Source: an uncultured Pseudomonadota bacterium (GTDB lineage: Bacteria; Chloroflexota; UBA5177; JAJPKF01). Taken from it: a stretch of DNA of 64,000 bases. Within the stretch, counting starts at the first letter, position 1; every line of letters begins with the position of its first letter. Shown piece after piece: positions 32,256 through 38,238 of the stretch. The stretch lies in contig CAWIIC010000016.1 in the NCBI GenBank assembly GCA_963836045.1, forward strand, positions 886-64,885. The letters are read 5' to 3'. The position numbers and the translations under genes were made by a program. The notes under the pieces are model-generated. The model had not been told where the DNA came from. It ran no database searches and saw only the letters and a program-made list of their open reading frames with translations.

Positions 32256-32445
32256 GCTTGTCACGTCCTCCAGTCTCCCCGGACCCTCATTAAAGAGGCC
32301 GGGATAACCGCCGTAGACATTGACGGATGGTACCACGGCGCGCGGCTCTTCTTCGAATGGCCGCGCCGACTGCTGGTTGAGCTGTTGTGTGACCTGCTGT
32401 GTGAGTTGTGCGTGGACTTTCTTCCAGCTGTCCAGGATAATTGCA

Positions 32446-32720
32446 CCGTGGCCGGCAAACAAGCCATTCCTTGAGCACGCAAGAACTGGAGGAAGAACAT
32501 GAAGCAACGAAGTATGAGCAGTCTCGAGAACCTGATCCGCCGCTGCACCATCGCCCTGTGCGCAGCTCGCACTGACTACGGCCGGTGTTGCGCTGAACTC
32601 ATCCGTCGGACCCGGTGCCATTGCGGCATCTCCAGCGGCGCTGACGGGCGTGCACGTCTTCGGCTGGGGATTCAATCAGCCTGACGCCATCGTATCCGAC
32701 GGCACCCACGTCTGGGTGGC
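32446..32720 (+). repeat. 5' leader cassette, copy 1 (promoter region, RBS and signal peptide of propeller paralogs)
   Basis: Aligns with 34646-34908, at an offset of 2200 nt at the start. Near-identical over GGAGGAAGA.CATGAA.CAACGAAGTATGAGC..TCTCGAGAACCTGATCCGCCGCTGCACCATCGCCCTGTGCGC. Confidence 0.8.
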
Positions 32721-34596
32721 CAACTACGCTGGGGACTCGGTTACGGAACTCGACGCATCGAACGGCGGACGGATCAGAACGATCGCAGGCCCGCGGTATG
32801 CGTTCGCGAGCCCGGTGTCGATCGCCTCGAGCACCGGCCACGTGTGGGTGGCCAACAGAGGCGGCAACTCGATCACGGAGCTCAGCGCCTTCACCGGCGC
32901 CCTCGTCAGGGTGATCTCTGGCATCCACGGCCCTGCGGCCATCACCACGAATGGCACCGACGTCTGGGTCGCCGCCCACTACCGGTGCGGTCACGCTGGC
33001 TGCGTCGACCACAGCCAGGTGACGGAGCTCAGCGCTTCGACTGGCCATGTCGTCAGACTGCTTTCAGGCCCCAGCTATGGGTTTGCGGACCCCGACGCGA
33101 TCTCCGCAGATGGCACGCACGTATGGGTCGCCAACTCCAGCGCTAACTCAGTCACCGAGGTCCGCGCTTCGACCGGAACCCTTACTCGGACACTCTCAGA
33201 CTCAAGCTACCGGTTCAACGAGCCCGACGCCATCGCGGTCGACGGCGCGCACGTTTGGGTGGCGAGCCCCGATCAACTCGCCGAGATCAACGCTGCAACC
33301 GGCCGCCTAGTCAAAGTGATCAATCTTACTGGGAATCTGGTCTTTCCACCCGGACCAGTCACGGATTCGGTTGCCTCAGACGGCGTGCACGTATGGGTGG
33401 TACATAGGTTCGGCCCTAACGGCGCCCTTGGCGGCGACAGCGGGGTTACTGAGCTGACCGCCTCAACGGGGAAGGTCGTTAGAGACGGATTGAGCCCGAG
33501 CTATGCCTTCGAGAGCGCCGACGCAGTTGCTTCGGACGGGGTCCATGTCTGGGTGGGGAACGAGCTGGGTGTCGGTGATGGAAGGTGTCGGACGTGCGGC
33601 CAGGCCACCGAGGTAGCAGAGGTCAGCGCGACGACCGGCGCCTTCGTTCGGGCGATCTCGGGGGCGAGCTATCGCTTTGCAGAACCCCGAGCCATTGCCC
33701 TGGGCGATTCCCGTGTCTGGGTCGCGAACGGCACCGGCAACTCTGTCACCGAGCTCAGCTCTACGACCGGCCGACTAGAGAGGGTGATCTCGGGCGGCTA
33801 TGGGTTCGTGGGTCCCGGCGCGGTCGCCACCGGCGGCGCCCATGTCTGGGTGGCGAGCGGCAACAACTGTATCACCGAGCTGAACGCGACGAGTGGGGCC
33901 TTGGTTCGGATGATCTCGGTTCCCACGCCGGGCTGCAACTCTTATTGTCCATCACTACGGGGCTGTGTCGAGGCCATTGCCGTGGACGGAACTCATGTCT
34001 GGGCGGGACTTTACCCTTCTAAGCCTCCCTATTCGCGTGCCGTGGCCGAGATCAGCGCATCGACCGGACAGGTCGTCAAGGTGATCTCGGGCGCGCGCTA
34101 CAAGTTTGCGAGTCTCCGCGCCATCGCGACCGACGGCACGCACGTATGGATCGCGAATGACGATGGTAATTCTGTCACCGAGTTGAACGCCCAGACGGGA
34201 AGCCTCATCAGGGTCATCTCAGACCCGTCGGACAGGTTCAACCATCCTGCTGCGATCGCCTTGAGCAGCGGTCATGTGTGGGTAGTCAGCAACGGCGATG
34301 GGAGTTCGAGCGGCGGCGTCACGGAGCTCGATGCTTCGACCGGAAAGCTCGTCAGCGTAATCTCACCCCCGTCGCTGCGCGGCGGCGCCGACGCCATCGC
34401 CTCCGATCCCGCTCACATTTGGGTGGCAAACATCCAAGGCTCGGTGACTGAGCTTAGCGCTCGGACCGGCAAGGTGATCGCGGTGTTGTCAGGCTCCGAG
34501 TACCAGTTCAATGGCCCCTCGGCGATAGCCACCGACGGCCGCCGCGTGTGGGTGGCGAACGGCCGCGGACAGTCGGTAACCGAGTTCCCGGCATGA
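32499..34596 (+). CDS. Secreted 14-blade NHL/YVTN-like beta-propeller protein, paralog 1; 1-nt frame disruption inside the signal peptide
   Basis: MKQRSMSSLENLIRRCTIALCAA is in ORF 32499..32684. The body is in ORF 32650..34596. Relative to the paralog (GCCGCCGCACTG) this copy reads GCAGCTCGCACTG, with one extra nt at 32562-32570. There are 14 units ending in ..DG.HVWVAN..G.SVTEL.A.TG. Confidence 0.75.
34312..34596 (+). repeat. 3' end cassette, copy 1 (last 285 nt of propeller paralog 1)
   Basis: Aligns without gaps to 36449-36733. I counted about 25 mismatches in 285 nt. Confidence 0.85.
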
Positions 34597-34645
34597 CGGA
34601 AAGAACCGCCAACTCGCATTCTCCCCGCCGGTCTGCACACTCGGA

Positions 34646-34908
34646 CCGCGGCCGGCACGCAAGCCGATCCTAACCACAGAAGAGCTGGAGGAAGAGCATG
34701 AAACAACGAAGTATGAGCCATCTCGAGAACCTGATCCGCCGCTGCACCATCGCCCTGTGCGCCGCCGCACTGATGACGGCCGGCGGTGCACTGAACGCAT
34801 CCGCGGCATCGAGACAACAGTCACCCACCGGAGTGAAGGTATTCGGCTGGGGTTTCAGCCACCCCAGCGCGGTTGCCTCGGATGGCAGCCATGTCTGGGT
34901 AGCTAACA
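34646..34908 (+). repeat. 5' leader cassette, copy 2
   Basis: See 32446-32720. Confidence 0.8.
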
Positions 34909-36733
34909 CGGATTCCGTGACAGAGCTAAACGCCGCCAGCGGGCACCTGGTCCGGGTTATCTCGGGCCTGGCCTATCCCTACGCCCGCCACTTCTTCAAT
35001 CCCGTCATCGCCATCGCTGCCCGCGGTGCCCATGTCTGGGTTCTCAACGGGGGCGCCTGCATGACCATCTGCTCGAAAGGTACGAACAGCTCGATAACCG
35101 AGCTCGATGCGGCGACGGGCAACCTGGTGCGGGTGATCTCGGGTCCCAAGTACCGGCTCAACTACTCGGCGGCAATCTCGGTGGCAGGCGGTGAGCTCTG
35201 GGTGGCCAACGGCCTAGGCACAAAAGGAGGCTCCGTCACCGAGGTCAGCGCTTCGACCGGTGATCTCGTTAGAGTGATCTCCGGCCCAGCGTTCCAATTC
35301 AGCGGCCCCGATGCCATCAGTTCAGACGGCGTTCATGTATGGGTAGCCGATGGGTCCGGCGCCTCTATCACCGAGCTTGAGGGTTCGACAGGCAAGTTGG
35401 TGCGGGTTATTTCACGTGCCGCGCTGGCGTTCCCCGTGGCTGTCGCCTCAGATGGCGCACACGTATGGCTGGCGACCGCTGTGTCCCCGGACGGGTGGGC
35501 GCTGATGGAGTTGAATGCTTCGACGGGCAATCCTATCAGAACGATCTCGGACTCGGGGTTCGAGTCCAACAATGTTCCGGGTGGCCTCTCCCTGCAGCGT
35601 GGCCGCCTATGGGTGGCGAACGAGGCCAGCGGTTCGGTCCTAGAGGTCGACGCGACGACCGGCGCCTCTGATCAGGACGATCTCCGGTCCCCGTTATGGG
35701 TTCAAGGAACCCGCCGGCATATCGGCGAATGGCGCCCACGTCTGGGTCGTCAACTATGACGGGAACTCGGTCACGGAGCTCAGCTCTCGCACTGGCGCCC
35801 TGGCGGCGACGATCACCGGGTCGAGCTACAGATTCAACGGGCCGGACGCCCTGGCCCTGGATGGCGGGCACATGTGGGTGGCAAGCGGTGGCTCTGTTGC
35901 CATGTTGAGCGCCAAGACGGGCCGGCTCCAACGCGCGATCTCGGACCCGACGCCCACGGCGATGGCGGCAGACAGCGCCCACGTCTGGGTGGCCAACACT
36001 GGCCTGGACGCCGTCACCGAGCTCAACGCGGTGAACGGCAATGTGGTCAGGGAGATCTCAGCAAAACAAATTGGTCTGAGCCTCACCACGTTTCGCAATT
36101 TAATCGCCGCGCGGCGGCACGCACGTCTGGGTCGCCAATAGCTTCCCAGCCTTCCGGGGCCGGTCACCGAGCTCAACGCCGCGGACTGCCCAGGTGGTAT
36201 CTGGGGAGAATCGTCATCGGGTTGCGGGCTCGACGTCGGGGCCATCGCCTCGGGTGCCACGGAACGTCTGGGTGGCGTGTGACGGCTCGTCTGGGAAGGG
36301 GTCGGTTGCGGAGCTAGGCGCTCGGACGGGAGGGTCGTCAGGGTTATCTCCGGCGCGTCGTTTCGATTCGCGGCTCCTGATGCGATTGCCCTCAACGGAG
36401 GCCACGTCTGGGTGGTCGAGCAACCCGCTAGTTGATGGCACGTCCAACGGTGGCGTCACGGAGCTCGATGCTTCGACCGGAAAGCTCGTCAGGGTAATCT
36501 CAGCCCCGTCGCTGCGCAGCGGCGCCGACGCCATCGCCTCGGACGCCACTCACATTTGGGTGGCAAACATCCAAGGCTCGGTGACTGAGCTTAGCGCTCG
36601 GACCGGCAAGGTGATCGCGGTGCTGTCGGGCTCCGAATACCAGTTCAGCGGCCCCTCGGCCATAGCTACGGACGGCCACCACGTGTGGGTGGCGAACAGC
36701 CTCGGACAGTCGGTTACCGAGTTTCCGGCGTAG
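34698..36733 (+). pseudogene. NHL/YVTN-like beta-propeller paralog 2; intact 5' third and 3' end, multiply frameshifted centre
   Basis: ORF 34698..35759 has an intact signal peptide MKQRSMSHLENLIRRCTIALCAAALMTAGGALNASAA and blades. From about 35660 the blade sequence hops between ORFs 35872..36141, 35874..36317 and 36194..36733, with at least 5 frame changes. The last 285 nt are highly similar to paralog 1. Confidence 0.8.
36449..36733 (+). repeat. 3' end cassette, copy 2
   Basis: See 34312-34596. Confidence 0.85.
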
Positions 36734-36813: not shown

Positions 36814-38238
36814 ATGAAGAGTCGAACCAGGATGCTTGCTATTGCCCTCACTCTGTCGGTTGGCGCGCTGTCCGCTGCCTCGGCCTGGGCTGCGCGGCCC
36901 GATGGTCTGAGTCATCCAGCTCATCGGCTATCGCTTCCGCTTCCGCGGCCGGCGGGCTTCCCGCTCGCGGCTCGAGCGTATGCCAACCCGCCGACGACTG
37001 CCCAATGTAGGACGCAGCAACATGTGGTCTGCTACTCGCCGCTCCAACTGCAGACCGCCTACGACATGGAGCCGCTCTTCAACGCTGCCCTCAACGGACG
37101 GGGGACGACCATCGCGATTGTAGATGCATTCGGCTCGCCCACTATCGCTCATGATCTGGCCCATTTTGATGCCGACTTCAGTCTGCCTCCGCCTCCTTCA
37201 TTCAGAGTCATCACTCCGGCCGGCAAGATTCCCGCTTACGACCCCAATGCAGGCAGTATGCAGGGATGGGCGTTCGAGACGTCGATGGACGTGGAGTACG
37301 CACACGCCATGGCGCCCGGAGCCAACATCCTGTTGGTCGAGACGCCTGTCGACGAAACCCTCGGCACGGCCGGCTTTCCCGAGATCGTCCATGCCGAGAA
37401 CTATGTCATCAACCACAAGCTGGCCAATGTCATCAGCCAGAGCTTCGGCGCCGCTGAGCAAACGTTTCCGAGCAAGCAGTCGATCCTGGATCTTCGAAGC
37501 GCCAACAAGAACGCGGCGGCGCACAACGTCACGGTCCTGGCCGCCCCAGGCGACCTCGGACCTACCGACTGGAGCGATCTCAACGGAGACTACTTCCTCC
37601 ACCCGGTCACCGAGTGGCCGGTCGGTGATCCGCTGGTCACTGCCGTCGGCGGCACAACACTCCACCTCGATTCCGCAGGAAGCCGAACCGCGATGGATAC
37701 GGCATGGAATGACTACCCCAACGGCCGGGGTATCGCCGCGGGGAGCGGTGGCCTTTCGTCTGTTTTCGCCCGACCCGCGTATCAGAATTCGGTACGCCGC
37801 GTAACCGGCAACCATCGCGGCGTCCCAGATATCTCCCTCAGCGCTGATTTTAATGCTGGCGCCCTCGTTTACACCAGCTTCGCGGGCAGCTGGGCCGCCG
37901 GCTACCACATCAATGGCGGCACAAGCCTATCCACACCGCTCTTCGCGGGCATCGTGGCCGTGGCCGATCAGGCCAACGGCTCGCCACTGGGCTTGCTCAA
38001 TCCCAGGCTTTACAAGCTCGGCTCGGGCTCGCCGGGTCTGCCGGACATCACCAAGGGCAACACGACGGTCACGTTCAACCAGAACGGCCGGCAATACACG
38101 GTAAAGGGGTATGCCGCCGTCAAGGGATACGACCTCGCGACCGGTTTGGGAACCGTCGATGCCGCCAAGTTGGTCGCCGCACTAACTGGTAACCACGTCG
38201 AAGGAGTCCGGAGGGCGTCCGGACGAGACCAGCAATGA
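36814..38238 (+). CDS. Secreted S53-family (sedolisin/kumamolisin-like) serine peptidase
   Basis: ATG 36814 follows GGAGGA. Signal MKSRTRMLAIALTLSVGALSAASAWA. Propeptide-type CYSPLQLQTAYDMEPLF. GTTIAIVDAFGSP. The nucleophile region is GGTSLSTPLFAGIVAVADQ. Confidence 0.85.
   Translation: MKSRTRMLAIALTLSVGALSAASAWAARPDGLSHPAHRLSLPLPRPAGFPLAARAYANPPTTAQCRTQQHVVCYSPLQLQTAYDMEPLFNAALNGRGTTIAIVDAFGSPTIAHDLAHFDADFSLPPPPSFRVITPAGKIPAYDPNAGSMQGWAFETSMDVEYAHAMAPGANILLVETPVDETLGTAGFPEIVHAENYVINHKLANVISQSFGAAEQTFPSKQSILDLRSANKNAAAHNVTVLAAPGDLGPTDWSDLNGDYFLHPVTEWPVGDPLVTAVGGTTLHLDSAGSRTAMDTAWNDYPNGRGIAAGSGGLSSVFARPAYQNSVRRVTGNHRGVPDISLSADFNAGALVYTSFAGSWAAGYHINGGTSLSTPLFAGIVAVADQANGSPLGLLNPRLYKLGSGSPGLPDITKGNTTVTFNQNGRQYTVKGYAAVKGYDLATGLGTVDAAKLVAALTGNHVEGVRRASGRDQQ

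Follow-up and report, generated by a model that had tools for sequence, protein, structure and literature searches.

The stretch of DNA analysed here (the window; 64,000 nucleotides (nt), positions 886-64885 of contig C16) belongs to a 5.14-Mb metagenome-assembled genome (MAG) of 16 contigs that is 89% complete. The RpoB protein of this MAG is at most 63% identical to those of named genomes, and its top matches are all from Chloroflexota. The window contains two genes on the same strand, at 32499-34596 and 34698-36733 with 101 nt between them, which encode secreted repeat proteins of the beta-propeller type and are referred to as paralogs 1 and 2, or copies 1 and 2. They are best explained as members of a lineage-specific family of secreted tandem double propellers in an uncultured Chloroflexota-like organism. 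The two copies are closely similar at both ends and far more divergent in the centre, and we consider it probable that they are old tandem paralogs that were made mosaic by a later recombination of their ends. The main elements of the locus are the following.

32499..34596, plus strand: paralog 1 (copy 1), a secreted tandem double seven-bladed (14-blade) beta-propeller of NHL/YVTN type
34698..36733, plus strand: paralog 2 (copy 2), with a 14-blade architecture like that of paralog 1
32446..32604, plus strand: 5' shared tract of copy 1, comprising a leader of about 52 nt, the ribosome-binding site (RBS) GGAGGAAGA, the ATG at 32499, and the signal-peptide n- and h-regions (MKQRSMSSLENLIRRCTIALCAAAL...), which include an RR motif
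34646..34802, plus strand: 5' shared tract of copy 2, comprising leader, RBS, the ATG at 34698 and signal peptide, with a NASAAS cleavage-type region just after it
34305..34596, plus strand: 3' shared tract of copy 1, comprising blades 13-14, the SVTEFPA tail and the stop codon TGA
36442..36733, plus strand: 3' shared tract of copy 2, comprising blades 13-14, the tail and the stop codon TAG
34597..34645, strand not assigned: a unique 49-nt spacer between the units, unlike both outer flanks (46-47% identity)

Architecture of the two propeller genes

In each copy, a signal peptide precedes 14 blades, each 42-47 residues long, with the blade pattern ..SVTEL.A.TG..V..I.....F..P.AIA.DG.HVWVAN. Scored as a whole protein, copy 1 exceeds the curated cut-offs of PF01436 NHL (35.4 bits against 20), PF08450 SGL (30.6 against 26.3) and TIGR02276 YVTN (31 against 27.85), although no single repeat passed alone; these profiles point to repeats of the NHL/YVTN propeller type. 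An AlphaFold2 model of copy 1, built with 28 homologues, has a predicted local distance difference test score (pLDDT) of 87 and a predicted template-modelling score (pTM) of 0.76. The model is all-beta and features 14 four-strand units, and its best Foldseek matches are tandem double seven-bladed propellers (Utp21, Pwp2; template-modelling (TM) score up to 0.71), consistent with a predicted beta-propeller fold. Copy 1 has the same type of blade as the NHL/YVTN propellers (PF01436, TIGR02276; relatives 'YncE'/'streptogramin lyase'), and differs from them in being a 14-blade tandem double propeller. It was ruled out as an equivalog of YncE or of streptogramin B lyase (Vgb), as its scores lie far under the NCBIfam cut-offs (22 bits against 400 for YncE, and 25 against 600 for Vgb(B)). 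Judged from the sequences, function cannot be transferred to the pair from known families.

Both genes are interrupted in the assembly. In copy 1 the signal peptide (frame 0) is severed from an open reading frame (ORF) of 648 amino acids (aa) at 32650..34596 (frame 1), and no alternative start restores the signal peptide to this ORF. Copy 2 is split into ORFs at 34698..35759, 35872..36141 and 36194..36733. It is unlikely that the truncated copy 2 works as a single propeller, its 353-aa ORF holding only about 6.3 blades. The hydrophobic core of the signal peptide shared by the two copies (32499-32600 and 34698-34800) is preceded by a twin-arginine-like n-region, LIRRCTIAL, and followed in copy 2 by the NASAAS cleavage-type site; export might proceed by the twin-arginine (Tat) rather than the Sec route.

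Shared ends and silent-site age of the centre

The 5' tracts (32446-32604 and 34646-34802) are 85.5% identical overall. The first 35 codons, which form their coding part, agree at 89.6% of positions, with 42 nt as the longest unbroken match; over the 52 nt ahead of the ATG the identity is 77%, the RBS being the same in both. Past approximately 32604 the identity falls to 52-68%, with insertions and deletions (indels), and the flanks beyond the tract are about 46% identical. The original prediction, made from the sequence of the window, had described a near-identical leader spanning 32446-32720 and 34646-34908; the shared leader and signal peptide are confirmed, while the outer limit was too generous. 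The 3' tracts (34305-34596 and 36442-36733) align without gaps at 90.4% identity, the longest stretch free of mismatches being 74 nt; a repeat finder reports this tract as 296 nt at 91%. The tract begins at the start of blade 13 and the identity ends at the stop codon, the next 60 nt being 47% identical. Within it, a 285-nt stretch (34312-34596 against 36449-36733) had been estimated to contain about 25 mismatches; it is ungapped and contains exactly 25.

The centre of the pair, consisting of 12 blades, shows a nucleotide identity of 54-59%, compared with 85-90% at the ends, as expected from the earlier description of the central blades as the more divergent part. When the alignment columns were shuffled 5000 times, the longest identical run never exceeded 33 nt (74 observed) and the best 285-nt window never exceeded 219 matches (261 observed). 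The same contrast is seen blade by blade: for blades 2-12 the identity between blades in the same position is 43%, against 39% for blades in different positions, while it reaches 78% in blade 13 and 93% in blade 14.

To date the ends relative to the centre, the reconstructed proteins (698 and 674 residues), which are collinear blade by blade, were used for a codon alignment, and silent (dS) and amino-acid-changing (dN) divergence was estimated by the Nei-Gojobori method. The 5' tract has a dS of 0.19 and a dN of 0.074, and the 3' tract a dS of 0.21 and a dN of 0.054. In three sections of the centre, dS is 1.66, 1.35 and 1.18, and dN 0.46-0.53. Divergence is thus not uniform along the aligned gene, with dS of about 0.2 at the ends and 1.2-1.7 in the centre, and silent sites are already saturated in the approximately 970 nt of the centre that are intact in both copies. 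The picture is the same in a test that is insensitive to doubtful alignment: at fourfold sites under identical residues, the third base differs at 79 of 130 sites in the centre (61%), compared with 6 of 40 in the 3' tract (15%; Fisher p = 3e-7) and 3 of 9 in the 5' tract. Since constraint at the protein level cannot lower silent divergence, the ends share a younger ancestor than the centre. The lower silent-site divergence of the tracts is that of segmental gene conversion, and the proposal that recombination or gene conversion produced the conserved ends is supported.

The alternative offered with that proposal was a recent duplication with subsequent decay, taken here as a tandem duplication of the whole gene after which the centre diverged fast or decayed. 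The tandem layout, the common 14-blade architecture and the collinear blades would all suit such a history, but the silent sites lead us to reject it, and it is the least probable of the readings considered here: the differences at 61% of fourfold sites and the high dS of the centre are found even in the 970 nt intact in both copies, and neither selection on amino acids nor decay of a pseudogene can lift silent divergence eightfold above that of the ends. Moreover, the blade matrix contains no counterpart in copy 1, at about 90% identity, for the central blades of copy 2.

The 3' tract has a dN/dS of 0.26. Neutrality is rejected (p = 0.0017); p rises to 0.07 if one branch is modelled as neutral. 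The tract has been under purifying selection since the exchange event, indicating that copy 2 was functional for much of the time since then.

In the favoured explanation, the 12 central blades of paralogs 1 and 2 would have diverged long ago, and a much later non-reciprocal homologous recombination would have made both ends alike. This may have occurred through conversion of the ends or, equivalently, through replacement of the centre of one copy via crossovers within the ends. The segments affected would be the leader, RBS and signal peptide on the 5' side, and the last two blades and the tail on the 3' side. A single event with two breakpoints could account for the pattern, dS being about 0.2 at either end.

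Several points weigh against this explanation. That the ends agree in dS is a result from few sites (10 and 25 differences), and the direction and recurrence of recombination are not visible from one assembly. The 5' tract could owe part of its conservation to selection at the nucleotide level, acting on translation initiation or messenger RNA structure. If a centre was replaced, its donor is absent from this 89%-complete genome. Finally, the frame lesions of copy 2 described below are clustered in 0.76 of its 2.04 kb (p ~0.001 against a uniform spread), a distribution that suits neither simple neutral decay nor a sporadic error rate of about 1 per 14 kb.

A metagenome could also yield such a pair artificially, if two strain alleles of one hypervariable gene had been assembled side by side; conserved ends around a very divergent centre are what alleles of a hypervariable gene look like. 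We regard this as very unlikely. The similarity breaks off precisely at the stop codon on the 3' side and some 52 nt ahead of the ATG on the 5' side, and neither outer flank resembles the 49-nt spacer. The ends are 10% different, which is above the usual value for flanks of co-assembled strains, and the family has a second tandem pair on contig C4.

Frame lesions and the quality of the assembly

The lesions of the two copies, and the other members of the family in the genome, are located as follows.

32562..32570, plus strand: surplus nucleotide in copy 1, a +1 frame change that is not in a homopolymer, from the alignment with copy 2
35667..36425, plus strand: frame-change patch of copy 2, covering blades 7-12 and containing all of its 6-8 frame changes
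C4 ~558541-556392, minus strand: C4a, a full-length 14-blade copy with 8 frame changes and an in-frame TAG
C4 ~554111-552040, minus strand: C4b, a full-length 14-blade copy with 3 frame changes
C4 555750-554328, between C4a and C4b: an intact group II intron reverse-transcriptase/maturase ORF of 474 aa
C12:515640-516025, plus strand: truncated remnant with three blades and the SVTEFPA tail in a 126-aa ORF, 3' of an alpha/beta-hydrolase-like gene
C6 ~99416-99655, minus strand: one-blade remnant

The single extra nucleotide that had been noticed in the signal peptide of paralog 1 is present at about 32565-32568, where copy 1 reads GCGCAGCTCGCACTG and copy 2 reads GCGCCGC-CGCACTG. In copy 2, frame 0 is open from 34698 to 35666, and frame changes follow at approximately 35667, 36112, 36161, 36187, 36200, 36262, 36332 and 36424; following the most blade-like path takes all 8, other paths no fewer than 6. 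All are indels of 1-2 nt, mostly alternating in sign, and the reconstruction reads through without an in-frame stop. A blade hidden Markov model (HMM) scores 51.8 bits in the patch compared with 55.7 in the intact part, and the blade motifs are equally preserved.

The original prediction counted at least 5 frameshifts between 35660 and 36440 and called the middle of the gene decayed. The count is in line with the 6-8 found within 35667-36425, whereas the decay is uncertain, as essential genes are also frame-broken in this assembly: ftsA (C5:~837090), murD (C5:~844400), atpA (C2:~144730) and lepA (C3, reverse strand, offset ~14900). The splits in ftsA and murD, both of the dcw cluster, and in atpA can each be explained by one surplus base; the ftsA site is not a homopolymer, and atpA is split at GGGSL. 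With 22 other long essential genes (~52 kb) intact, this corresponds to about 1 break per 14 kb of essential coding sequence. The frameshifts in the propeller genes are consequently not safe evidence of decay, and some or all of them may be consensus errors. The lesions of ftsA, murD and atpA are of the same kind as the +1 lesion of copy 1, which we rate as rather more likely an assembly error than a real change.

Residual indel errors are known to frameshift gene calls in Nanopore-based MAGs (Sereika et al. 2022, PMC9262707). The present case is similar in that 1-nt indels split conserved, even essential, genes in a highly contiguous MAG; it differs in that the propeller lesions are not in homopolymers and have a density far above the genome background. 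The three +1 lesions inspected at base level, in copy 1, ftsA and murD, all lie in a GCTC context (CAGCTCGCA, GCGCTCGAG and CGGCTCAGA, respectively), which could reflect a systematic basecalling context or chance. GCTC was dropped as a common context of +1 lesions, as it is absent at the first copy 2 site and frequent in intact blades. Multi-copy elements gave no estimate of the indel rate, the group II intron and an IS630 element both being single-copy.

At the extreme, both genes would be intact in the organism and every frameshift, including the patch in copy 2, would be a long-read consensus error, for example in a low-coverage or strain-mixed accessory region. We consider this a serious possibility, though not the favoured one. 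In addition to the broken essential genes, it would explain why the lesions are clustered, mostly alternate in sign, consist of 1-2-nt indels only and require no stop in copy 2, why neither the architecture nor the blade-HMM scores suffer in the patch, and why the 3' tract beyond the lesions has a dN/dS of 0.26. However, the lesion density in copy 2, C4a and C4b is approximately 50 times that of the essential genes, while unrelated genes between and beside them are intact, including the adjacent kinase, S53 peptidase and RCC1-like genes and the group II intron reverse transcriptase. The in-frame TAG of C4a and the remnants on C12 and C6 also stand against it. The sequences of these remnants indicate real structural decay of the family, because base-level errors cannot create a truncation. 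For the 6-8 lesions of copy 2 we lean slightly towards recent real decay, and give a local patch of consensus errors not quite an even chance. Given that essential genes are broken too, it would take reads to infer gene decay from frame breaks in this MAG.

Family, neighbourhood and comparable systems

C4a and C4b are uniformly 60-72% identical from end to end, without conserved ends, which rules out a cassette layout as a feature of the whole family. The centres of the C16 pair are about 55% identical to each other, compared with 50-68% to C4a and C4b, while in the end tracts copies 1 and 2 are much closer to one another than to any other relative. The relationships thus appear incongruent between tracts, as judged from identity profiles and not from a formal tree. 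The shared leader and the shared 3' tract have only 2 occurrences in the genome. With shared ends confined to the C16 pair and uniform divergence in the C4 pair, the mosaic belongs to this pair and not to the design of the family.

Silent-cassette systems, such as Neisseria pilE/pilS, Anaplasma msp2, Borrelia vlsE and Treponema tprK, have many promoterless, 5'-truncated donors and one expression site, and segmental variation has been shown within populations. It had been suggested that the propeller pair could work in a comparable manner, with the silent copy 2 supplying blade variants to an expressed copy 1 via the conserved ends. The pair does resemble these systems in its conserved flanks, its variable centre and the apparent loss of function of one copy; the identical runs of 42 and 74 nt suffice for RecA-type recombination, and copy 2 is broken as assembled and has no promoter-like site before it. 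Unlike a silent cassette, however, the only partner is full length and has its own RBS, ATG and signal peptide, and the supposedly expressed copy 1 is frame-broken as well. Several promoterless or truncated donors around one expression site were not found in this genome, the ends occurring in just the two copies and the C4 pair being without conserved ends. The ends are about 10% different, with a dS of 0.2, and so there has been no recent exchange. In the blade matrix and the identity profiles, moreover, neither centre has a tract in common with the other centre or with the C4 copies. An active cassette system is therefore not supported and is highly improbable, and it is equally hard to credit that the leader/signal-peptide tract and the last two blades serve as homology arms that swap the 12-blade centres between an expressed and a silent gene. 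If true, a free-living Chloroflexota-like bacterium would switch a secreted binding protein by recombination between two copies, outside any host-pathogen setting.

The closest analogue of the mosaic pair is the babA/babB/babC family of Helicobacter pylori, in which intragenomic recombination or gene conversion affecting the 5' and 3' regions has been invoked to explain the pattern (PMC4552749, PMC3444412). The bab loci are dispersed, while the propeller genes are in tandem. In bab, chimeras are found among isolates of a host-adapted pathogen and are tied to phase variation by CT repeats; the propeller pair comes from one environmental MAG, with no chimeras observed, no simple-sequence repeat and an unrelated fold. 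The propeller pair is a real but ordinary mosaic.

A consensus scan of the locus for promoter-like sites returned one candidate.

32413..32441, plus strand: promoter-like site TGGACT-17-GATAAT, just 5' of the shared tract of copy 1 (weak evidence, from the consensus scan only)

The scan found no promoter-like counterpart upstream of copy 2, and neither a terminator-like nor a promoter-like site in the spacer at 34597..34645. Co-transcription of the two copies is thus possible, as far as consensus matches can indicate. An Rfam scan of the propeller locus was empty.

The gene divergently upstream of the pair encodes an intact HTH-ATPase-kinase fusion, and the 3' neighbours, also intact, are an S53/S8-type peptidase and an RCC1-repeat protein. 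In a search of 5.8 billion proteins, the nearest foreign homologue of copy 1 is 43% identical; the read-through patch of copy 2, used as a protein query, has a best match of 41-56%. There is no close homologue of the propeller in any of 40 related genomes, two metagenome scans for independent copies or strains found nothing, and the collection searched contains no protein at least 90% identical to the proteins of the locus. The secreted S53/S8-type peptidase directly downstream (36814-38238) is a singleton cluster with no relative at 90% identity or above among ~15 billion proteins, and an exact look-up of its sequence gave no match. In the cluster look-ups, four ORFs of the propeller locus and the S53 peptidase are all singletons, and the whole neighbourhood appears to be unique to this assembly.

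Homologues of copy 1, in actinobacterial and other MAGs, are often fused to Ser/Thr kinase, caspase-like (PF00656), TIR (PF13676) or CHAT (PF12770) domains. By analogy, these fusions suggest a role as a ligand-sensing ectodomain for this type of propeller. The kinase fusion gene divergently upstream of the pair in the window can be set beside the kinase fusions of the homologues.

Segmental conversion between paralogs is common, and the finding carries little further weight in that respect. The comparison of silent sites can tell recombination from 'duplication plus decay' with only two sequences, and the propeller genes, from an uncultured soil-type lineage, are a clear case of mosaic paralogs.

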